A stretch of DNA of 64,000 nucleotides, taken from a plasmid. Positions 1,525 to 40,779 of this stretch are shown here, one piece after another (the stretch's first letter is position 1; every line of letters starts with the position of its first letter). The stretch lies in the sequence record NZ_CP118102.1. One strand, 5' to 3'. The translations under genes were made by a program, and so were the position numbers. The notes under the pieces were generated by a model that ran no database searches, was not told where the DNA came from, and saw nothing but the letters and a program-made list of their open reading frames with translations.

Positions 1525-2765
1525 CGTTCACCATTCCATTCGATATCCGAGGTAGACGCTTCTTGAAGCGTCAGGCGTTGCCGGGCGGCCGTTCGGCGCG
1601 TCCAGGCGAGCAGCCGAAACTGTTCCGCAAAAGGCTTCGGGTCTTCCCGGCGATACACGACGTCACGGCTGCCTCGCCAAGCGCGCAGCCATTCGCCGAG
1701 CGTTCGTTCGCGGACGGCCTGGACGAGCCCGTAGCTCAGCATCGCGGCCGAGAGCATCGCGCCTTGTCTTGATTGTGCGGCAGGAGAGGCGATTCGCCCG
1801 GCCGCCAGAAGAGCGGCAGGACACAGCAGCGCCTCCGCCAGCCGGCCGTCCGATCCGAACAGATGCACTCCGCTCGTCGCCCTCGGATTGCATTCCATCG
1901 GCAGGACGGCGCCTTCCGGCGAGATCATGAAATCGAAGGCGATCTGCCCGGTAAAGCCGATTCCCGCGACGAAGCGCCGGACCCAATCGAACAGCTGCGG
2001 CTGGCTGGCCGGCTCGTAATGGATGCTGGCGCCCCGGCCGGCGCGAAAACGGCTGCGGTATGCGGCGTGAGCCGCGATCCGGCCCTCGTGCGCTACGCTG
2101 TAGGTGCACCATTCTTCGCCGCGCAGCAGCTCCTGGACGATCCAGGGCCGACGGTCAGACACGCCGGCCTCGGCCAGCTTGCGCGCGATTTCCTTACGGC
2201 GGGAGTCCGGCAAGGGAGTGCGGCGCAAATCGAGCAGCAGCGTGCGCGAAGCGAATCGCGAATAGGCCGGCTTGAGCGCGATGCCTTCGGCGAAGCGGGG
2301 GCTGTCCAGCAGCAGCAGCTGCCAGCCGTCCGGCGTGTCCAGCGTCACCGTGTCCGGGACGGGAAGTCCGAGGCGCGCCGCGGTTTCTATAAATTTGCCT
2401 TTGTGGTGGAGAGAGTCCAGTTCCGCCAGAGGCGCCGCCAGTACGCGGCAAACGCCCTCGAATCGGTCGAGCTCCTTGGAAATGTGGAAAATCTCCTCGC
2501 AAGTTGGAATCAGCGCGTCGATGCGGTGTTGTTCGGCAATCGCGCACAGTGCCGCGGCGTATTTCTCCGAATTTTCGGAGGGCGGGGGGACATGGAAGCT
2601 TCGTTCGACGGAACGGGATACCCGGCACAGGTGATAGGGCGCGGATTCGGCCGCGTAAACCCGATGGCCGGCGGCGCGGAACAGGCGGGCCAGCTCCAAC
2701 GCTGCCGGAGAGCGGCCTCCTGTAAGGAGAACGCGCTGCGGCTCCGTTTCCGGCTCAATAGTCAA
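1521..2765 (-). CDS. ATP-grasp domain ligase
   Basis: 414 aa. N-terminal pre-ATP-grasp Rossmann-like region (RVLLTGGRSPAALELARLFRAAGHRV), central ATP-grasp-like core (KPAYSRFASR...WIVQELLRGEE). Start overlaps the KAS III stop, indicating translational coupling. Confidence 0.65.
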   Translation of the reverse strand: MTIEPETEPQRVLLTGGRSPAALELARLFRAAGHRVYAAESAPYHLCRVSRSVERSFHVPPPSENSEKYAAALCAIAEQHRIDALIPTCEEIFHISKELDRFEGVCRVLAAPLAELDSLHHKGKFIETAARLGLPVPDTVTLDTPDGWQLLLLDSPRFAEGIALKPAYSRFASRTLLLDLRRTPLPDSRRKEIARKLAEAGVSDRRPWIVQELLRGEEWCTYSVAHEGRIAAHAAYRSRFRAGRGASIHYEPASQPQLFDWVRRFVAGIGFTGQIAFDFMISPEGAVLPMECNPRATSGVHLFGSDGRLAEALLCPAALLAAGRIASPAAQSRQGAMLSAAMLSYGLVQAVRERTLGEWLRAWRGSRDVVYRREDPKPFAEQFRLLAWTRRTAARQRLTLQEASTSDIEWNGER

Positions 2766-3756
2766 GGATCAGCCCTCCCAGCGTCAGTCCCGCCGCCGTT
2801 CCGATCAGCAGCACGCGGTCCCCCCGCTCGATCCGTCCCGTCCGGATCGCTTCATGAAGGCCCATCGGGAGGGAGGCGGCGATCGTATTGCCGTGGTTCG
2901 GCGTAATATAGACAAGCTGGCGCTCGGCTATGCCCAGCTTCTTGCGCATGAGGCGAACGGCCATCGCGCTGCCTTGGTGGGGGATGACCGCTTTAAGGTC
3001 CGACATGACCGTTCCCGCCGATTGCAGCAGCTCCTCTGTGAAGTCGGGCAGCAGGCGAGAAGCCATCTTGTAGATGGCCGGACCGTCCATCGAGAACAGA
3101 TAGTCGTCCGCGGCGGCGGGACGATAGCCGTTCGGGTGACGCCTGGTGCCGCCCGCGCGAATCTCGGAGAAGGCGGCTCCGGCGCTGTAGGTGCGCATGG
3201 AGGCGCCGACGATGGCGGACGGCTCGCCGTCCTCCGCCGGACCGAGGACAACGGCGGCTGCTCCGTCCCCGAACAGCGCGGCGCTTTCCTTGTGCCGCCA
3301 ATCGAGGCCGACGGAAGCGATCTCGGACGTGACGATCAGCACGTAGCGGTATCTTCCGGCCGCGATCATGCAGGACATGGCGTCAAGCGCCGCCAGGAAG
3401 CTGAGACAGGTGGAATCAATATCAAAGGCGGGGACGCCGGACTGCTCCATCCCCAACTCGCGTTGAATGAATACGGCGGAGCAGGGGAGAGCTTGCTCCT
3501 TGGTGCCGCTTGCGCCGACGAGGCAATCCATGTCGGTGAACTTCAGGTTGGCGGCTTGAAGGGCGGCTTGGGCGGCTTTCGCGCCCATGGCGGATGCGGT
3601 GTCGTCTTCTCCGGCGTAGTGCCGGGAGACGATGTCCGTCACCCTGCGCGTCCAGCCCCGGGAAACGCCGAGGCGATCGTCCATCTCCAGATCGGAGATC
3701 GGGCGGCCGGGCAAGTATTTGCCCGTTCCGTATATTTTGACTTTGCGAATGTTCAT
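2755..3756 (-). CDS. 3-oxoacyl-ACP synthase III (FabH-like KAS III)
   Basis: 333 aa. Cys-His-Asn catalytic context (DSTCLSFLAALDA..., HQGSAMA..., NHGNTIAASLP) and the typical C-terminal GGLILDY tail. RBS GGAGATCTC precedes ATG 3756. Confidence 0.85.
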   Translation of the reverse strand: MNIRKVKIYGTGKYLPGRPISDLEMDDRLGVSRGWTRRVTDIVSRHYAGEDDTASAMGAKAAQAALQAANLKFTDMDCLVGASGTKEQALPCSAVFIQRELGMEQSGVPAFDIDSTCLSFLAALDAMSCMIAAGRYRYVLIVTSEIASVGLDWRHKESAALFGDGAAAVVLGPAEDGEPSAIVGASMRTYSAGAAFSEIRAGGTRRHPNGYRPAAADDYLFSMDGPAIYKMASRLLPDFTEELLQSAGTVMSDLKAVIPHQGSAMAVRLMRKKLGIAERQLVYITPNHGNTIAASLPMGLHEAIRTGRIERGDRVLLIGTAAGLTLGGLILDY

Positions 3757-4259
3757 AGAGAGATCTCCTTCCCGCGCATCGTTCCCGCAAGTTCATTGTG
3801 CCGGAAAGAGGACGGACCGAATAGTACCAATTTCGCCTGGTACCTCCGTTATTCGACTGCAAACATACATGTTCGACAGAAGTCGCGCAGGTTCCTGTCG
3901 CCGGATCGGGACACGCCAAATAACCCGAACCGATTGCGGTCCGGGCTAGGCACGCCCTAATGGATGCGACCTTATTGCTCCGCTTTGACGATGCTTTTGC
4001 CGAACAGATACAGAACGCCGACCCCTCCGAACATAAGAGCAAGCAGGAAATAGAAGTAAAACACGCGCGCCACCTCCCGGAATTGGATTAGGAAATCGAA
4101 CACCCCAACTGTAAGCCAGACTGGAGGAGCTGTGACCACCCAATTGCGAGAAAATGCGGCCAGCCAAAAAGCTTGGTAACGACTGGCGTTGGGGAACAGG
4201 GAAAGAGACAGAGGCAGGGCGGCGTAATGACAGGGGCACAGGCGAGCCTTGTGCGACGG

Positions 4260-4718
4260 GTCAGGAGGGCGGATGATAAGCTCGCGTGGCGGTACTGTTG
4301 GGGGAGGCGGGTCAGGCGGTCGGACAATAAGCTCGCGTGGCGGTACTGTTGGGGGAGGCGGGTCAGGCGGGCGGATGATAAGCTCGCGAGGCGGTACTGT
4401 GGAGGGCGACGGGACAGGCGGTCGGACAATAAGCTCGCGTGGCGGTACTGTTGGGGGAGGCGGGTCAGGCGGGCGGATGATAAGCACGCGTGGCGGTACT
4501 GTTGGGGGCGGCAGGTCAGGCAGTCAGACGATAAGCACGCGTGGCGGTACTGTGGAGGGCGGCGGGTCAGGCGGTCGGACGATAAGCACGCGTGGCGGTA
4601 CTGTTGGGGGCGGCGGGTCAGGCGGTCAGACGATAAGCACGCGTGGCGGTACTGTTGGGGGCGGCAGGTCAGGCAGTCAGACGATAAGCTCGCGTGGAGG
4701 TACTGTTGGGGGCGGCGG
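4260..4718. repeat. Nine tandem copies of a 51-bp (17-codon) unit
   Basis: Units begin at 4260, 4311, 4362, 4413, 4464, 4515, 4566, 4617 and 4668. Consensus gtcaggcggtcggacgataagctcgcgtggcggtactgttgggggcggcgg, with point variants. The unit length is a multiple of 3, and three reading frames stay open across the array. Confidence 0.9.
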
Positions 4719-4728
4719 TTTGTGTTGT

Positions 4729-4756
4729 GCAGGATGCTCCGTGTGGAGCATCCTGC
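4729..4756. other. Perfect 12-bp stem / 4-nt loop hairpin immediately after the repeat array (no T-tract)
   Basis: gcaggatgctcc gtgt ggagcatcctgc. Confidence 0.6.
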
Positions 4757-4829
4757 AGTGGAGTTGGAGCCATTAGTTGAGTGTCGGGAACGATCCGACG
4801 TTGCCGTCCAATGGGTTTCGGGGAGCGAA

Positions 4830-6221
4830 TCAGCCGCGGACGAACCGTTCGAAGAGGGAGCCGGCGGCCAGCACTAGTTCGTCGTCGCCGCGACGCCCTG
4901 TGAGCTGCAGGCCGATCGGCAGTCCTTCCGAGGAGAGGCCGGCAGGCAGCGACAGCGCCGGGAGCCCCCACAGGTTGGCAAGCGGAGTGAACTCGCCGTT
5001 GGCGGGTCCGCCCGGCTTGCCTGCCGGGATCGGGCCGGCGGTGACCGGACAGGTGGGGGAGACGAGTACGTCGATCTCTTCGAACAAACTGTCAACCAAC
5101 GAGCGATGGGAATCCCTCCAGCTCAGGCAGACGTCATAGTCGCTCGTCGTAATGGCGCGTCCCGCCTCCAAGCTGTTCCGCATCCGTTCGCTGTAACCTT
5201 TCGCCCAATCCGTCAGCTTTTCTGTATGTGTCCGATATGCCTCGTAATGCAAAATCGTCCACGTTTTTTCCTTCACCTCGGAGATTGGAAGCTCTGTGTT
5301 CAACCGCTTGACGCGGAAGCCGGCCTTCTCCATCGTCTGGACTACGCCAAGGATCGCATCGCGAATTTCGGGCTCTGCCTCCGCATCCAAATAGTCGGTC
5401 GCTACGCCGATTGTCAGCGGCTTCTCAGTCGCGCGAGCCCTGATGCCGGGTTGCTCCACTTCCACGTTCAGTCGCATCCGATTCTCCGCAGATTCCTCCA
5501 TAAGACGCGTTCCTTTTTCATCCGAACGCTCCGCAAGAACGTTAAACAGCAAGGAGACGTCTTCGCAAGTGCGTGCCAACACGCCTGCATGATCCAGCGA
5601 CGGCGCCAGCGGCGTAATGCCGTCCAGGCTGAGGCGCCCCGCGGACGGCTTGAATCCGGCGACACCGCAGAAGCTGGCCGGCACCCGGACGGAGCCGGCT
5701 GAGTCGGTGCCGATCGAGCCGAGGGCGAAACCGGCGGCGATCCCCGCGGCGGAGCCGGAGCTGGAGCCGCCGGGCAGTCGGCCGGGCCGCAGCGGATTAA
5801 GCGTCCAGCCGAAGGCCGGGTGAGGCCGGCCGTAAGCGAACTCGTACAAATGCGCCTTGCCGATGATGACTGAGCCGGCCTCCAACAGCTTGGCGACGAC
5901 GCGTGCATGCGCTTCTGGAACCGGCACGGGAGATCGGCCCGAGCCGTTCGTCAGCGGCACTCCCGCATAAGCGATCATATCTTTGACGGATACCGGGATG
6001 CCGTGCAGCGGTCCGCGGTCGCGGCCGTCCCGCAGCTCGCGCTCGGCCTGCGCGGCCTGTGCCCGAGCTTCGTCCTCCATCAGATGAAGGAAGGAGCGAT
6101 ACCGGTCGTCTTCGTTTCGTATTCGCTGCAGAAGCGATTCCAGCAGTTGGACGGGAGAGAGCTCTCCGCTGCGGAAGGCCCGTCCTGCCGCCGCGATCGT
6201 CCATTGGTCGTTTCGGGGCAT
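4830..6221 (-). CDS. Amidase (amidase-signature family; GatA-like)
   Basis: 463 aa. Contains GGSSSGSAAGIAAGFALGSIGTDSAGSVRVPASFCGVAGFKPS (amidase signature, Ser-cisSer-Lys triad region) and the KDMIAYAG lysine region. Confidence 0.85.
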   Translation of the reverse strand: MPRNDQWTIAAAGRAFRSGELSPVQLLESLLQRIRNEDDRYRSFLHLMEDEARAQAAQAERELRDGRDRGPLHGIPVSVKDMIAYAGVPLTNGSGRSPVPVPEAHARVVAKLLEAGSVIIGKAHLYEFAYGRPHPAFGWTLNPLRPGRLPGGSSSGSAAGIAAGFALGSIGTDSAGSVRVPASFCGVAGFKPSAGRLSLDGITPLAPSLDHAGVLARTCEDVSLLFNVLAERSDEKGTRLMEESAENRMRLNVEVEQPGIRARATEKPLTIGVATDYLDAEAEPEIRDAILGVVQTMEKAGFRVKRLNTELPISEVKEKTWTILHYEAYRTHTEKLTDWAKGYSERMRNSLEAGRAITTSDYDVCLSWRDSHRSLVDSLFEEIDVLVSPTCPVTAGPIPAGKPGGPANGEFTPLANLWGLPALSLPAGLSSEGLPIGLQLTGRRGDDELVLAAGSLFERFVRG

Positions 6222-6652
6222 GTCTCATTCCTCCATGTGTTAAGCATATACGAAATCAGAGTTGCGAGGTTGGGATAAAATTGGAGCAGATTGCGAAAAC
6301 GGCGTGTGCATTGGCGACGACTGACCGAAAGGGATGACGACCAACGGCATTGACAGCGGCCGACATACGGAAGGGCGACAGACCAAGGTGTTCGAGGCGG
6401 CGGACGTAAGCAACTGCCGGCGATTGCGGTGAAAAAGATAACGGCTTGCGAAGGTATATAACGAGATTGCGACGAACGTTTATCCGACTTTACAACTTGG
6501 ATAACTCATACTATGATAGCGTCAAGCGCCGGTTAGGTGCAAGGTTATCGCGTCTTCGCGCTTAGTCTTGAACAAGAGGAGCGAGACTTCAGAATCCCGA
6601 TATAACAAAATGAAGCGCAATTCAATACAAATCCCGATTCGGAGGCGGTCAT

Positions 6653-7620
6653 ATGGCGGCACACGGAACTGCAAACGAATTTATCGCCCGGCTGTACGAA
6701 GCGAAGCTGGCCCGGGCTGCGAAGCTCCCCGACCCGGCGGCGGATGGGGAGGAGCTGCTGCGCAGAAGGGAGCGGTTGGCCAGTCTGCTTCGCATCCCCC
6801 TTGCACAGGAAAATGCCGTCCCGCCGGATGCTGAGCTGCTGGAACGTACGGACCAAGGGGCTTACATTCGCGAACGGGTGGAGATCGGCACGAGGGACGG
6901 CCTGCGCATGCCGATGTACGTGCTGCTCCCCAAGACGGCGTCCGCCAGCAGCCCCGCACCTGCCGTACTGGCGCTGCACGGCCACGGCTACGGCAGCCGC
7001 GAGCTGGTCGGACTGACGCCGGACGGACGCGACGAGCCGGAGGGAACGGGCATTCACAAGCATTTCGCGCTGTCTCTCGTCAAGCGCGGTCTGGCCGTCA
7101 TTGTACCCGAACTGCTCGGCTTCGGCGAGCGCCGGCTGGAGGAGGATAGCCGGCTGGACGAAAATCCGGCGGATATGCGCAACTCCTCCTGCTACAAACT
7201 GTCCTCCTTTTTGACTCATCTGGGAGAGACGCTGGCGGAGCGTTCGTCGCGTATTTGGCGGCAGCGCTGGATGAACGCTTCCGTGCCGTCGTATTAAGCG
7301 GGTATACGAATACTTATGAGGACAGTTACTTTTTCTCCCGGCAGCACTGTCTGTGCGACTATATTCCCGGAATCGTCGAGTTGGGCGACATGCCCGATCT
7401 CGTCGGATTGATCGCTCCCCGTTCCCTGTACTTGGAGGTCGGGAAGAGCGACCATCTGTTTCCGGTGGAAGGGGCGGTCAGAGCAGCTGAGCGGATCGGA
7501 ATGTATTACGAGCGCTTGGGCGCGGCGGACCGGCTTGTGTTGGATATTTTTGACGGGGGACACGAAATCGGGGGAATCGGCTCGTTCGATTGGTTGAGGA
7601 AGGAGCTGGATGCGCTATGA
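6653..7620 (+). pseudogene. Alpha/beta-hydrolase fold esterase (dienelactone hydrolase / acetyl-xylan-esterase-like), broken by a frameshift near 7200-7255
   Basis: ORF 6653..7297 (ALHGHGYG...) and ORF 7255..7620 (...VVLSGYTNTYED...DGGHEIGG) are consecutive parts of one roughly 320-aa hydrolase in different frames. The second frame reads back to a stop at 7147 and encodes GGAFVAYLAAALDERFRAVV, which resembles the nucleophile-elbow region. Confidence 0.55.
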
Positions 7621-15299: not shown

Positions 15300-16652
15300 A
15301 TGACGGCAAACCGCAAACAATTGAAACTGGGCTTTATGGTGCACGGCGTCGGGTCGAGCGCGAGCGCATGGCGGCATCCGGCGGTCGAGTCGGACGCGAG
15401 CGTCGCGTTCGACTTTTACCGGCGGCAGGCGCAGATCGCGGAGGCCGGCAAGCTGGACCTCGTCTTTATCGCGGACGTGCTTTATATTAACGAGCGATCG
15501 ACGCCGCATTTCGTCAACCATCTGGAGCCGCTGACGCTTCTGGCCGCGCTGGGCGCCGTTACTTCGCGGATCGGCCTCGTCGGCACGCTGTCGACGACGT
15601 ACAGCGAACCCTACGCCGGAGCGCGCCAGCTCGCTTCGATCGACCGGATCAGCGGAGGACGGGCGGGCTGGAACGTCGTGACGACCGGCATGCGCGGAGC
15701 GGCGCTCAACTTCGGCAAAGCGGAGGACGCGCACCCGGATCACGATACGCGCTACCGGATCGCGGGCGAATATTTGGAGGCGGCGCGCGGACTGTGGGAT
15801 TCGTGGGAGGACGACGCGTTCGTAAGGGACAAGGAGAGCGGCGTCTTTTACGACCCGGACAAGCTGCATACGCTCGACTACCGGGGCGAGTTCTTCTCGG
15901 TTCGCGGTCCGCTGAACATCGCGCGCTCCAAGCAGGGGCATCCGGTCATCTTCCAGGCGGGCTCCTCGGAGGACGGTCAGAACTTCGCCGCCCGCCATGC
16001 CGACGCGGTCATGACCGGCATTACCGAGCCGGAGGAGGCGCGGCGTTATTATCGGGAGCTGAAGCGCAAAGCCGCTGCAGCGGGACGAAATCCGGACGAT
16101 CTGCTCGTTATGCCGAGCGCCGCCGTCGTCGTAGGCCGAACGAGGGAAGAGGCGGAGGAGAAGTACGAGGCGACCGCTTCGCTCCTGTCGATCGAGGAGG
16201 CGATGCGGTATTTCGCGCAGTTTTTCGACTTTCACGATTTTACGCAGTATCCGCTCGACGGTCCGTTTCCCGAGCTGGGCGACTTGGGGCGCAGCAGCTA
16301 TCAGAGCTTTACGGACAGGGTCAAGCGCGAGGCGCGGGACAAGGGGCTGACGCTGCGCCAGACGATTCGCAGGTTCGCCGCGCCGAAGCCGCGTTTTCTC
16401 GGTTCGGCAGCCGAAGTGGCGGACGGCTTGCAGGAATGGTTCGAGACGGGGTCGGCCGACGGATTTATATTGCACAGCGACGTGCCGGGCACGTTGTCCG
16501 ACTTCGCGGAGCTTGTCGTGCCGGTGCTGCAAGAGCGCGGTTTGTTCCGCCGCGAGTACGAGGCCGATACGCTGCGGGGCATGCTCGGCTTGCCCGTGCC
16601 GCGCAATCGCTATGAGGCCGCGCGGGCCGCACGCTTCAAGGACGGCGGGTGA
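15300..16652 (+). CDS. LLM-class flavin-dependent monooxygenase (NtaA/SnaA/DszA family)
   Basis: 450 aa. MTANRKQLKLGFMVHGVGSSASAWRHP... is a typical bacterial-luciferase-like N-terminus. Confidence 0.8.
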   Translation: MTANRKQLKLGFMVHGVGSSASAWRHPAVESDASVAFDFYRRQAQIAEAGKLDLVFIADVLYINERSTPHFVNHLEPLTLLAALGAVTSRIGLVGTLSTTYSEPYAGARQLASIDRISGGRAGWNVVTTGMRGAALNFGKAEDAHPDHDTRYRIAGEYLEAARGLWDSWEDDAFVRDKESGVFYDPDKLHTLDYRGEFFSVRGPLNIARSKQGHPVIFQAGSSEDGQNFAARHADAVMTGITEPEEARRYYRELKRKAAAAGRNPDDLLVMPSAAVVVGRTREEAEEKYEATASLLSIEEAMRYFAQFFDFHDFTQYPLDGPFPELGDLGRSSYQSFTDRVKREARDKGLTLRQTIRRFAAPKPRFLGSAAEVADGLQEWFETGSADGFILHSDVPGTLSDFAELVVPVLQERGLFRREYEADTLRGMLGLPVPRNRYEAARAARFKDGG

Positions 16653-37759: not shown

Positions 37760-39699
37760 GTTACTAGAGTAAAGGGCTGGGTAAACCAGCCCCTCCTCAT
37801 CAAACCGTACGTGAGGTTTTCCCTCATACGGCTTTCCGATGTTCGTCATTCATGTGCATACAGATTACAAAAGCGTTTTGAGTCCACATTGACTCGCCAT
37901 GTTCCTCACTTCTTGGACTGCACTTTGCCACCGAGAACGTTGTCTTTTCTTTGCATACCACTTTGCCAAACGCAGCACAATGTACCAATCTAACTTCGCC
38001 ATTTTTCGTTGGCTGTAGGACGTGTGGTAGTAATTGCGCCACCCCTGAATCTTCGGATTCAGCCAACCTATGTGCTCCGCGAGTGACTTGTGTCTTTGGC
38101 TGGACGGAGCTAAGCGCTCTTTTACCACTTCCCGGATGCGTTCCTCCGCTTTACTGCACAGCCACTGCTGCGTGGTGTAGTACACTCTTCCGGAGGATGT
38201 CTCAGCTTTCGTCTTGCGATGATGCATGCCTAGAAAATCAAACCCTTCTTCTCCTGTCCATAATCCTACGATCCGCGTTTTCGTCGGATGCAAGGTCAGT
38301 TCCAGACGCTCCATAATCGCACGTATGAGTGCATACGCCCGATCTGCATCTTTCTTCGTTTTGCATACGACAACGAAGTCATCCGCGTAACGCGTAAGTT
38401 CCCCATTTTCACTGCCATGTCGTTCCCACAGAATATCAAAATAATTCAAATAGATATTCGCTAGCAGGGGGGATATCACACCACCTTGTGGTGTACCCAG
38501 ATCGGATCGCCTGATCTTTCCTTCCTCCATCACTCCCGCGTTCAGCCACTTCCTTACCAGCTTCAGGACGCGCCTGTCGCTGATTCGCATCTCTACCAGT
38601 TTCATCAGTTTCTCTTGGTTGATGTTGTCGAAGTAACCTTGGATGTCGACGTCGACCACCCAATTTCCTTTTCGGTTGCAGGCTTTTCGGATTCGGTCCA
38701 GTGCCCCTTTCGCACTTCGTTTTGGACGGAACCCAAATGAGGATTCCTGAAAGTCCGCTTCAAAGATCGGTTCCATGACCAGTTTCGCTGCCATCTGGAT
38801 GACGCGGTCTCGGACGGTTGGGATGCCCAGCGGTCTTTGCTTCCCGTCTTTCTTCGGAATGTAGTGCCGGCGGACGGGCTGTGGATGGTATTTGTTTTCC
38901 TTCAAGTGTCGTTGGCATTCGTACAGGAAAAACGCTTCTCCCTTTTCCTCAATATCCGAAAATGTTTCTCCATCGACGCCAGCCGATCCTTTGTTAGCTC
39001 GTACTCTCCGCCAGGCTTCCTCTAATACATCCATTCGATAGACCTTGTCGTACAACGCGTGGAATCTGCGCTTTTTGTTTTCCTTGGCCGCATGACCTAG
39101 TTTCTTCTGGAGTTGTTGAACGTTTTCCTTTGGTGTCGTTAGCCGTTTGGCATTCACTAATTCGTACCTCCTAAAAAAAAACATGAACAAAGCAGGGCTC
39201 CTTCCCTCCTGCAGGTTGTGTTGTCCTGCAGTTCCTCAGTACTACGAGCCCCTCGGACTCCCTTCCTGCAAGTAGATCATTTCATCTTTTGGACTTATAG
39301 ACCACTTTGTTACGGTTTCAAAAAAAAAAAAAAAAAAATCCGTGCAGGGGAGGGTCTCCCCAGTTCACTGCATCTTCTTTCATATCATGCCGATCCCCTT
39401 ACGCCGGAGGATTCTTCACTGCCGCTCCAAGTTCTTAGCAGTTTCCGTGGCCTTCACCCATTAAGCCGGGGTTCGGCTTCCCCTTGTCCCTCTTGCGAGG
39501 CCTCTTTGACGACGCGGCAGGATTCACTTGATGTTACGGCCTGAAATATTGCTCGCTCTGTCTCCGACAGATACTTTTGTCGATACGCTTCTACGCACAG
39601 TTTTCACCGTACATAGGTATCCTAGCTACACAGGGGCTTGGCCCCTCCTGTGACTGGACTTTCACCAGCTAGAAGATGCGTGCTTAGCTGGGCACGCGC
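37760..39699 (-). mobile_element. Bacterial group II intron (likely class C-like, terminator/hairpin-targeting), copy 1, about 1.94 kb
   Basis: Encodes the RT/maturase. Domain V-like agccgtatgagggaaaacctcacgtacggtt and domain VI-like gggctggtttacccagccc near the 3' end (minus strand). 3' boundary ...ctctagtaac|gggcagg. The 5' boundary is approximate (plus or minus 10 nt). Confidence 0.85.
37865..39190 (-). CDS. Group II intron reverse transcriptase/maturase
   Basis: 441 aa. RT domains with [18 protein letters not shown] and YADDFVVV (RT5/YADD), then the X/maturase domain. Confidence 0.9.
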
Positions 39700-39782
39700 T
39701 TAACGAAAAATGGAGCAGCTGCCAATCGGCAAACTGCTCCTTGTTTTTTTGGACTAACGTGTTTACCGTTAGTTCATTAAAC
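39700..39782. repeat. Composite repeat copy interrupted at its A half-site by group II intron copy 1
   Basis: ttaacgaaaaa tggagcagctgccaatcggcaaactgctcc ttgtttttttgg ... taccgttagttcattaa. Confidence 0.7.
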
Positions 39783-39819
39783 GTACCATGTCTGTATAGT
39801 GATTAAATCACTTTCTTCA

Positions 39820-40722
39820 CTAATCAGTGATTAAAGGCTTTCTTTGGTTAAGCTGATCTTTATTAAAGACTAACTCCCCACGTGTCCAAAATCCTTTTTG
39901 CACATATCCATCCCGATGAATTTTGGTCCCATAGCCATGTTCTAAATTATCTACCCAACCGCCTTCATAAACAGTACCATCATTCCATTTATATATTCCG
40001 TTTCCATCGTACAGCCCATCTTTCCATTCTCCACGATAAAAATCACCATTTGCGTATTCTTTAACACCAAAACCATATTCCTTATCATTAAACCATTGTC
40101 CTTCATATTTTGATCCATCTGACCAACGATACACCCCGGTTCCACATTTTAATCCGTTCATCATTTGCCCGAGGTAAGTTTCACCTGATTCATATTCAAT
40201 ACATATTTGATTCTCCTTTACACTTTCCCATACTCCTTCAACCCTTTTGTTGTCGATATGAATTACGGACTTTATCAAATTAGGTTTTGTCTCATGTTCA
40301 GATTGAGTAACTACTGTTCCTATTTGGGGTTCAAGCAACAAGGGGGGCGGTACAAATTGGTCGTTTACGAAGGTTTTGTAATACCAAGCTGTCAGATCGA
40401 AAATTTCTAAAATAAGTGTTCTCACTTTATTTTTTTCAATGAAAATAAAGCTTTCTCTAGTATCCAAGTATTCTAACTTCTTCAGCGTTGTCACCATGGA
40501 AAAAGGTAAAATTTCAATTTCCATTAGTGCAGATAAATTAATAAAAGGCTCAGAATCATCAATTTCTACATTCTCATTTAGTAGAATCTTTTTAACGATT
40601 AACCGTCCTATTTCTTTCAAATGATTTAAAGCTAAGATGTGGTCAAATTCTAATATATATTCAGCATGATATGCTAAAGAACAGACATCCGGCATTTCGT
40701 TTTCAAACACTTTAAAGCTCAT
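39820..40722 (-). CDS. MORN-repeat protein with uncharacterised N-terminal domain
   Basis: C-terminal repeats YEGQWFNDKEYGFGV, YRGEWKDGLYDGNGIY, YEGGWVDNLEHGYG. Confidence 0.65.
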   Translation of the reverse strand: MSFKVFENEMPDVCSLAYHAEYILEFDHILALNHLKEIGRLIVKKILLNENVEIDDSEPFINLSALMEIEILPFSMVTTLKKLEYLDTRESFIFIEKNKVRTLILEIFDLTAWYYKTFVNDQFVPPPLLLEPQIGTVVTQSEHETKPNLIKSVIHIDNKRVEGVWESVKENQICIEYESGETYLGQMMNGLKCGTGVYRWSDGSKYEGQWFNDKEYGFGVKEYANGDFYRGEWKDGLYDGNGIYKWNDGTVYEGGWVDNLEHGYGTKIHRDGYVQKGFWTRGELVFNKDQLNQRKPLITD

Positions 40723-40779
40723 TCTCCACCTCCATTTTTCCCGATACTATCCAAATAACTTCTACATATACTTTCAACT

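Follow-up and report, generated by a model that had tools for sequence, protein, structure and literature searches.

Intergenic minisatellites of bacteria are exemplified by the mycobacterial MIRU-VNTR loci (PMC3635867; Supply et al. 1997, cited there). The locus studied here resembled them in several respects. Namely, its units were tens of base pairs long and arranged head-to-tail between co-directional genes of a GC-rich genome, its alleles differed by whole units, and short-read assemblies failed to span the array. The preliminary description of this DNA had left three readings open: a repeat protein that is phase-variable or has recently expanded, a proline-rich membrane protein in decay, and a non-coding array. 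The evidence favoured the last option over the two coding ones, and we consider it very probable that the array is a young, lineage-restricted non-coding minisatellite (VNTR) at a single locus, resized by slippage or unequal recombination.

Structure and genomic setting of the array

The nine-unit 51-bp tandem repeat noticed earlier was real. Tandem Repeats Finder (TRF) placed it at 4253-4718 of the window (the whole 64-kb stretch of DNA that was analysed), with a period of 51, 9.1 copies, 88% matches, zero indels and a score of 708. The units abutted directly and were similar over all 51 bp. A 29-nt core of the unit had 9 matches against 0 expected, and none elsewhere in the 64 kb. The plus strand of the array was G-rich and the minus strand, which also carried the flanking genes, was C-rich. 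By eye, each unit held only two runs of at least three G, about 35 nt apart, as regards a possible G-quadruplex.

The upstream gene ended at 4830 and the small downstream gene started at 4064 (Table 1). The latter preceded an operon of KAS III, ATP-grasp, epimerase and metallo-beta-lactamase-fold genes. The host was a Cohnella-type bacterium and the array lay between two of its genes. The spacer that followed the array evolved fast: it carried a TAC-to-TAA change in the related locus L007, and its length differed by 22 nt in L094.

Table 1. Features at and around the 51-bp array (positions in the window)
Feature	Position	Strand	Evidence
KAS III-like gene, first of the conserved downstream operon	2755..3756	minus	Pfam; homologues; related loci
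Terminator-like hairpin after the small ORF, 11-bp stem then UUAUUU	3918..3947	minus	z about -3.3
Ribosome-binding site GGAGGTG (4071-4077) and 30-aa hydrophobic small ORF MFYFYFLLALMFGGVGVLYLFGKSIVKAEQ	3972..4077	minus	Conserved in five lineages
Block of moderate conservation ahead of the small gene, TTGGCTGG..CGCAATTGG..TACAGT	4078..4170	minus	Alignment A1; L092 sequence
Unique spacer following the array, perhaps a tenth unit that has degenerated	4171..4252	minus	Alignments of relatives
51-bp array, 9.1 copies, probably non-coding	4253..4718	no strand	TRF; unit search and lists; stops per frame; phase and synonymous tests
Perfect 13-bp hairpin, 4-nt loop	4728..4757	minus	Folding; relatives
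Amidase gene, same-strand upstream neighbour, for context only	4830..6221	minus	Pfam PF01425, E = 1e-94

Open reading frames across the array

Three ORFs had been reported across the array, and all of them were present as described. Two were on the plus strand: frame A (4173-4877, 234 aa), with the Arg/Trp-rich repeat RRVRRADDKLAWRYCWG, and frame B (4249-4776, 175 aa), with the Gly-rich repeat SGGRMISSRGGTVGGGG. The third was the minus-strand Pro frame (3972-4487, 171 aa) with its PPPPTVPPRELIVRPPD repeats. A fourth frame, the minus-strand PQQYRHASL frame, was fully open as well. The openness of the repeat was thus genuine, but it did not exceed chance. When the consensus unit was shuffled 20,000 times, at least three of the six frames were open in 96% of the shuffles and at least four in 80% (mean 4.3), and random units of 63% GC had a mean of 3.7 open frames. 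The long ORFs are what chance would give for a GC-rich unit in which few changes lead to a stop codon.

Codon composition was rejected as a way of telling the frames apart. The units were copies of one another, so that GC3 rested on only 17 independent codons per frame, and none of the frames fitted the host pattern (0.69/0.51/0.74 by codon position). The GC3 values given previously for frame A (about 82%) and the Pro frame (about 59%) were reproduced, at 0.82 within the array (0.75 over the whole ORF) and 0.593, respectively; frame B had 0.585 rather than about 0.53.

Frame A had been singled out as the best match to the host coding bias. It did have the highest GC3 inside the array, it was open in the window species, and its raw synonymous fraction was 0.43-0.47. 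However, its GC1 was below its GC2, unlike in host genes. Stops in this frame numbered 0/0/0/2/1 in the window, L001, L002, L007 and L094, and the ORF overlapped the last 48 bases of the amidase gene in antisense. Its sole family match was sub-threshold (Pfam T2SSppdC, 18.4 bits against a cut-off of 22.5 bits). An Arg/Trp-rich repeat protein made from this frame is, in our view, exceedingly improbable.

Frame B was the choice of the gene callers in complete assemblies (the Pro/TM frame being called at contig edges); it was annotated in two assemblies, as a gene of 116 aa and one of 99 aa. Along with the PQQYRH frame, it was free of stops in all five arrays. However, few substitutions could have produced a stop in either of these two frames. 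For frame B, staying open was to be expected, since its third codon positions coincided with those of the Pro frame and a stop arose from only 3 of the 153 possible substitutions. Its synonymous fraction was 0.46 against 0.34 expected (p = 0.11), and its GC by codon position (0.585/0.795/0.585) departed from that of the host. The N- and C-termini varied among lineages because they were located in the variable flanks and the hairpin. Moreover, the sequence resembling a ribosome-binding site was weak, all neighbouring genes lay on the opposite strand, and the frame matched no protein family. We therefore regard a Gly-rich repeat protein encoded here as highly improbable. The earlier suggestion of a phase-variable or expanded repeat protein did not hold up well, given the stops of frame A in the relatives and a frame B with neither coding signature nor homologues.

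Tests for coding signatures and homologues

Among the 20 distinct units, variable columns were distributed over the codon phases as 9/5/10 (p = 0.42). The 28 variant events, which gave limited power, revealed no synonymous excess over the spectrum-weighted expectation in any frame; the best value (p = 0.08) was that of the Pro frame, with a synonymous fraction of 0.46 against 0.32 expected. When 1.84 billion representative proteins were searched exhaustively with HMMER, no relatives of the Pro-rich repeat came to light. The matches with the Pro-rich ORF covered only the last 30-54 residues, which corresponded to the small gene, in addition to three unrelated low-complexity repeat proteins. Pfam, NCBIfam and Rfam gave no usable match for any frame or for the region 3000-6000. 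With the Pro-rich ORF or frame B as the query, word-index searches of proteins returned nothing among the 8000 candidates to which they were limited; as they missed even the frame-B products of L001 and L002, they were given no weight. Thus, the array appeared to lie outside protein-coding sequence, having no conserved start or end, codon periodicity, synonymous excess or homologues.

A separate small gene downstream of the array

The minus-strand ORF had been described as proline-rich repeats joined to a C-terminal membrane anchor. The two parts were in frame only in the window species, and the "membrane anchor" is a separate, conserved and previously unannotated gene for a predicted membrane peptide of 30 aa. 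This gene used a GTG start at 4064 and a stop at 3972-3974. Five lineages kept the arrangement GGAGGTG-N6-start, with a swap between GTG and ATG as the start codon, and the gene was conserved even where the array was absent. Synonymous and non-synonymous changes stood at 7:4, 12:6 and 13:7. HMMER matched the small ORF to P0121, P0123 and P0124, and at locus L092 it had been called as a 30-aa gene. The protein matched no described family.

The terminator-like hairpin after the small gene was also found in L087 and L092, with a z-score of about -3.3 in all three cases. On the other side of the gene, the block at 4078-4170 was shown to be non-coding by two indels against C. cellulosilytica, one of 14 nt and one of 1 nt; it probably holds the promoter and leader of the small gene, with a transcription start predicted near 4085-4100 on the minus strand.

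These findings bear on the possibility of gene decay. Here the ancestor would have been a tail-anchored membrane protein beginning with MLHTEHPAQHK, followed by PPPPTVPPRELIVRPPD repeats, a linker and a transmembrane helix, and inactivated independently in each lineage. The period was a multiple of three, and L007 carried one 48-bp variant unit with a 3-bp deletion that preserved the frame. The Pro frame was open over the whole array in L007 (from the ATG) and in L094, and in the window it continued into the hydrophobic segment. However, that segment had its own strong ribosome-binding site and was conserved without any array. In L007 a TAA broke the junction with the Pro frame, in L094 the 22-nt length difference put the two out of frame, and linker lengths differed by 14, 1 and 22 nt among lineages. 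Candidate starts varied between a GTG within a unit and an ATG in the stem of the upstream hairpin, and no ribosome-binding site was visible at any of them in three lineages. Consistent C-termini were likewise lacking in these lineages.

Stops in the Pro frame numbered 3/1/1/0/0 in the window, L001, L002, L007 and L094. The TGA variants had been placed in units 5-9; such stops existed, but only in three units of the window (4524-4526, 4626-4628 and 4677-4679) rather than throughout, and the unit variant carrying the stop had spread to these three units. None of the lineages seen had an intact version of the gene, its codon periodicity was absent, and it had no homologue. With the anchor independent and the start, ribosome-binding site and C-terminus inconsistent, we find a decaying Pro-rich gene quite unlikely.

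The hairpin between the amidase gene and the array

The perfect hairpin reported next to the array was confirmed, although it had 13 base pairs and not 12. It formed by pairing of 4728-4740 with 4745-4757 (-25.9 kcal/mol, z = -7.9), lay 73 nt past the amidase stop and was separate from the repeat. The Pro frame had its sole ATG inside this hairpin, again with no ribosome-binding site. The hairpin was identical in L001, L002 and L007 and deleted in L094. It lacked a U tract, and it was rejected as a classical intrinsic terminator. It may instead mark the 3' end of the amidase transcript or act as a pause structure within it.

Distribution and copy number

The array was present in three close lineages. 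The amidase synteny beyond Cohnella (L008-L012) yielded neither an array nor a small ORF nor KAS III beside the amidase gene, and KAS III was therefore chosen as the handle, related loci being found through its homologues. Nine other Paenibacillaceae loci with the same downstream operon, namely C. cellulosilytica, L092 and seven more, were missing the array. Alignment detected no convincing similarity to a proto-unit in C. cellulosilytica. Further copies of the unit were absent from the 64-kb window, and a metagenome scan returned this locus, the counterpart in a relative and one chance match.

The comparison of repeat numbers among strains that had been proposed earlier did reveal variation. 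Near-identical assemblies with identical flanks contained 9, 6 and 5 units, the 6-unit version coming from a complete genome. The differences, of 153 bp and 51 bp, were clean deletions that kept the register, and the partial alleles L003 and L004 also differed. Since most short-read contigs broke inside the array, assembly collapse may contribute to these differences. Such variation fits an intergenic VNTR and a contingency gene equally. Variants specific to a lineage were common to several of its units, indicating concerted evolution.

RNA composition and a possible regulatory role

An RNA of the minus strand would consist of 48% C and 20% G and contain 28 YC dimers per 100 nt (background: 12). 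Its predicted minimum free energy was -72.4 kcal/mol compared with -96.8 +/- 5.4 kcal/mol for shuffled sequences, which was worse than 100 of 100 shuffles (z = +4.5), although this positive score arose in part from the repetition of one unit. The strand skew was not unique, as other regions of the window were more skewed. A promoter scan found one promoter-like site within a unit against 0.3 +/- 0.7 in shuffles.

The array could be non-coding and still functional, either as a transcription element tuned by copy number or as several weak promoter-like units in a stack. One variant would have the C-rich, unstructured RNA act as a zone of Rho loading and termination that shields the small gene and the operon from read-through. 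The other would have CCAACA-N17-TATCAT units feed transcription into them. The RNA composition, the folding below every shuffle, the preceding hairpin with no U tract, the promoter-like site and an upstream gene co-directional with the array in both genomic contexts were consistent with such a function. However, the array occurred in one narrow clade and was missing at the nine related loci with the same operon, the promoter-like count did not rise above that of shuffles, and the skew was unexceptional within the window. We consider a functional array rather unlikely. As a candidate role, a copy-number-tunable element (a Rho-loading insulator or a weak-promoter stack) that sets transcription into the 30-aa gene and the KAS III/ATP-grasp operon seems unlikely. 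A regulatory role of the array is possible, and its likeliest effect, if any, would be on transcription entering from upstream.

Proposed origin of the array

According to the non-coding minisatellite reading, the array has the 3' end of the upstream gene on one side and the putative promoter region of the 30-aa membrane-peptide gene on the other. Slipped-strand mispairing, or unequal recombination among the near-identical 51-bp units, would add and remove units in register; the units would be partly homogenised within each lineage, and none of the long ORFs across the array would be a gene. We infer that slippage or recombination was the mechanism and that the array was nearly neutral.

Several observations serve as counterpoints to this reading. 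The 51-bp unit and the 48-bp variant of L007 were both multiples of three, which hints at a coding origin since non-coding DNA would have about a 1-in-9 chance of showing this. Frame B and the PQQYRH frame were open in every lineage seen. Additionally, Pro-rich linkers can evolve under little constraint, and the limited power of the 28 variant events applied here as well.

The value of this case was mainly cautionary: repeat units that are multiples of three look open in several frames by chance in GC-rich genomes, and the proteins that gene callers derive from such arrays end up in databases. The analysis also set apart a real 30-aa membrane-peptide gene, which belongs to no family described so far. 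For strain typing within this Cohnella clade, the array could be useful as a marker. A new biological question would arise only if the regulatory reading were true, in which case the locus would represent a contingency switch built on a minisatellite, in a soil bacterium of the Bacillota.

Comparison with known systems

Like Pro-rich tandem-repeat genes for surface or membrane proteins (contingency genes), the array had a unit that was a multiple of three, a Pro-rich periodic frame and a variable repeat number. Unlike them, it had no conserved start, ribosome-binding site, signal peptide or anchor; its Pro frame contained stops in the window species, and it displayed no codon-phase signal and no homologue. 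CRISPR arrays are likewise periodic and outside genes, and this class was rejected because the 51-bp units abutted, were 88% alike and left no unique spacers. With rut regions the array shared a C-rich, G-poor, unstructured and YC-rich RNA located past a stop codon and a hairpin with no U tract. This was a likeness in composition only, and known rut sites, unlike this array, are not long tandem arrays.

In MIRUs, small ORFs overlapping the stop and start codons of the neighbouring genes have been described, and no such ORFs were present at this array. MIRUs are dispersed over many loci, whereas this unit was found at one locus only, both in the 64-kb window and in the metagenome scan. A dispersed element of the REP/MIRU type was accordingly rejected, as the unit was not dispersed. 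Finally, unlike the mycobacterial MIRUs, the array belonged to a host of the phylum Bacillota and to a very narrow clade within it.

Repeat array and its open reading frames

Tandem Repeats Finder detected one array in the whole window (period 51, 9.1 copies, 88% matches, score 708, 0 indels), and the 29-nt unit core gave 9 matches at up to 3 mismatches, with 0 expected, and none elsewhere in the 64 kb. The nine-unit 51-bp repeat of the preliminary description was thereby borne out, and its three ORFs were all present with GC3 near the values reported there. The TGA variant was also found, not throughout units 5-9 as described but in three units only, and the perfect hairpin past the array had 13 pairs rather than 12 (-25.9 kcal/mol). 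Openness in three frames was seen as well, but a fourth frame (PQQYRHASL, minus strand) was fully open too. Since a frame in a tandem array is open in every unit or in none, each frame was a sample of 17 codons; when the consensus unit was shuffled 20,000 times, 96% of the shuffles kept three or more of the six frames open and 80% kept four or more (mean 4.3). The three-frame openness is not beyond chance.

Positions of features at the array locus, in the window unless a locus is named
Feature	Position	Strand	Remark
ATP-grasp-like gene	1521-2765	minus	
KAS III-like gene	2755-3756	minus	
Epimerase, metallo-beta-lactamase-fold and AMP-binding genes	past the two genes above	minus	
KAS III leader	about 3757-3900	minus	~120 nt before KAS III start
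Small gene	3972-4077	minus	GGAGGTG 4071-4077; GTG 4064; end 3972
Small gene in relatives	L087:2705-2797; L092:1714-1806; L007:5951-6043		
Array	4253-4718		
TGA variants	4524-4526; 4626-4628; 4677-4679	minus frame	
Hairpin	4728-4740 with 4745-4757		
Amidase	4830-6221	minus	PF01425, E = 1e-94
Segment absent from L094	4719-15465		~10.7 kb
Monooxygenase gene	15300-16652		
Low-GC island	about 37800-40750		
Island ORF, reverse-transcriptase/maturase-like	37865-39190	minus	
Island ORF, MORN-like repeat protein	39820-40722	minus	
Frame B gene calls	L001:7446-7796; L002:7446-7745		116 aa; 99 aa
Long ORFs	2854-3960; 1773-2906	plus	
Long ORFs in L094	5019-6674; 5548-6705		

A small gene and its neighbourhood

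The segment previously described as a C-terminal membrane anchor of the proline-rich protein proved to be an independent gene, with its own strong ribosome-binding site (RBS), start and terminator-like hairpin, conserved across lineages. On the minus strand, GGAGGTG was followed after 6 nt by a GTG that opened a 30-codon ORF (MFYFYFLLALMFGGVGVLYLFGKSIVKAEQ) encoding a hydrophobic protein of the pattern MFYFYFLL..GVGVLYLFGK..EQ. This arrangement of RBS and start was also found in Cohnella sp. SGD-V74 (L007), Ga0206118_100142 (L094), C. cellulosilytica (L087) and locus L092, the last with an ATG start, and the terminator-like hairpin lay 3' of the gene in three lineages. Synonymous and non-synonymous codon differences from the window stood at 7:4 in C. 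cellulosilytica and 12:6 in L092. When the 171-aa minus-strand ORF was searched exhaustively with HMMER against 1.84 billion representative proteins, matches were confined to the small-gene part (P0121, 43 aa; P0123, 50 aa; P0124, 30 aa), and P0124 spanned query residues 142-171, exactly the 30-aa ORF. Upstream of the RBS, alignment with C. cellulosilytica required gaps of 14 nt and 1 nt, so the sequence there was not the same reading frame. The peptide belonged to no family in Pfam or NCBIfam. It was called as a 30-aa gene in L092, flanked by a divergent UbiA gene and KAS III, and gene annotation of the complete genome (L001) did not include it. In some Cohnella it immediately preceded an operon of KAS III, ATP-grasp, epimerase, metallo-beta-lactamase-fold and AMP-binding genes.

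The genes flanking the array were all on the minus strand. The amidase and KAS III genes recurred as exact copies in the 5.44-Mb complete genome CP118108.1 and several metagenome contigs, and the nearest named relatives of the locus were Cohnella species. One source named the genome with identical flanking genes (protein P0001; CP118108.1, GCA_028747985.1) "Paenibacillus urinalis"; against the all-Cohnella closest relatives, this label may point to inconsistent naming or classification.

Two further features of the window were observed. Comparison of the sequence just upstream of KAS III in L087-L092 and L107-L110 revealed a leader kept in at least ten Paenibacillaceae loci, with the motifs GACAGGAAC-N15-CGAA, GTCGAA, a direct repeat GGTACTA..TTGGTACTAT and CACAATGAA. 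It had no Rfam match; a promoter for an alternative sigma factor, together with an operator, is one possible reading, and an RNA leader of an unknown kind another. Against ~63% GC in the rest of the window, a low-GC island with a marked excess of C over G was also present. It probably represents mobile or foreign DNA, and its group II intron-like ORF had a YADD motif judged by eye.

Reading frames in relatives

The array was present in three closely related lineages: the window's species (9, 6 and 5 units in three assemblies), L007 (5 units, one of 48 bp) and L094 (5 units).

Stop codons inside the array, by frame
Frame	Window	L001	L002	L007	L094
Pro-rich (minus)	3	1	1	0	0
A (plus)	0	0	0	2	1
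B (plus)	0	0	0	0	0
PQQYRH (minus)	0	0	0	0	0

Frame A, the best candidate by GC3 in the preliminary description, was excluded as a gene by its stops in two relatives. The Pro-rich frame is without stable ends across lineages. Its sole possible start in the window was a GTG within unit 5, from which it continued into the small gene without a change of frame. The L007 version started at an ATG within the 13-bp hairpin stem and ended at a TAA in the spacer (TAC to TAA). In L094 a TAA stood just ahead of the array, the sole start was a GTG within a unit, and the spacer differed by 22 nt in length, so that this frame and that of the small gene were not in register. Unlike the small gene, none of these starts had an RBS. 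Frame B had its third codon positions in common with the Pro-rich frame, and its openness carried little information because stops can arise in it by only 3 of the 153 possible single substitutions.

Gene callers emitted frame B where an assembly spanned the array, and contigs starting inside it (L099-L106) carried a partial gene call that joined the Pro-rich frame to the small membrane peptide; these proteins are spurious. ORFs of 368-551 aa, lying antisense to the KAS III and ATP-grasp genes or in another frame than theirs, passed straight through the array, a sign of how readily this GC-rich genome gives long non-genic ORFs.

Comparison of 20 distinct units from three lineages gave 24 variable columns and 28 variant events. 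The columns fell 9, 5 and 10 at Pro-frame codon positions 1, 2 and 3 (chi-square p = 0.42). Observed and expected synonymous fractions, the latter weighted by the mutation spectrum seen among the units, were 0.46 and 0.32 in the Pro-rich frame (p = 0.08), 0.43 and 0.30 in frame A (p = 0.10) and 0.46 and 0.34 in frame B (p = 0.11). The commonest change was C-to-T on the minus strand (12 of 28 events). The stop-creating variant is now in three units in the window's species, and this spread counts against selection on the Pro-rich frame, which would oppose it. Units of one array had lineage-specific variants in common (CGC to CAC in four of five L094 units), pointing to homogenisation within arrays.

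With stops in relatives, unstable ends, no codon phase and no synonymous excess, the coding readings were not supported. The third option of the preliminary description, a non-coding array, was the best reading, and on these sequence comparisons we hold it with considerable confidence. The period and the sole indel are both multiples of three, which counts against it, as the unit may have originated in coding DNA.

Distribution, copy number and rearrangement

Nine loci carried the same operon with no array upstream of it, so the array is young and clade-specific; C. cellulosilytica and L092 had the small gene without the repeat, and seven other Cohnella or Paenibacillaceae loci had neither. 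Repeat number, which had been proposed for comparison among strains, did differ between assemblies. L001 corresponded to the window minus units 2-4 (153 bp), L002 lacked one more unit, the junctions fell within stretches identical from unit to unit, and two partial alleles (L003 and L004) differed by one unit. However, collapse of repeats by a short-read assembler gives the same whole-unit pattern as unequal recombination or slippage, and most short-read contigs stopped inside the array; copy-number polymorphism is therefore likely, not proven.

L094 lacked the segment from the amidase through the FAD-oxidoreductase block, with fragments of the monooxygenase gene left. It retained the array, which thus goes together with the small gene and operon rather than with the amidase, and one breakpoint coincided with the array edge. 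Between the window and L007 (window 2755-7219), amino acid identity was 93.7% for the amidase, 99.1% for KAS III, 99.3% for the ATP-grasp-like protein and 100% for ORF 6545-7219. This mosaic divergence suggests recent recombination whose boundary lay close to the array and spacer.

Origin, possible role and relation to known repeats

The array is real, single-locus and intergenic, without a coding signature, different by whole units between assemblies and narrow in range. A segment of about 51 bp was probably duplicated into an array whose length then changed by unequal recombination or slipped-strand mispairing; the array is probably nearly neutral. It lay ~90 nt upstream of a conserved block that probably holds the promoter of the small gene, so only transcripts reading through from the gene upstream would cover it.

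The predicted read-through RNA (48% C, 20% G) resembles a Rho-loading region in composition: it contained 28 YC dimers in every 100 nt (background, 12), was preceded by a strong hairpin without a U tract, and folded more weakly than 100 of 100 shuffles (-72.4 vs -96.8 +/- 5.4 kcal/mol), although the z-score of the folding is partly due to repetition of one unit. Other parts of the window were more skewed, and a promoter stack built on CCAACA-N17-TATCAT in each unit was at odds with a promoter-like count not above shuffles. Since most relatives also had no array, either function seems improbable.

Among known systems, a CRISPR array was rejected for the 51-bp repeat, and every feature of a repeat-protein gene that was tested was absent. 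The MIRU-VNTR loci of Mycobacterium tuberculosis are mostly intergenic minisatellites of variable copy number (PMC3635867). The closest kind was such an intergenic minisatellite or VNTR; dispersal over many loci, a MIRU-specific trait, was not seen in the window or in a metagenome scan, whereas the generic VNTR features were present. We regard the array as a fresh example of this already known type.
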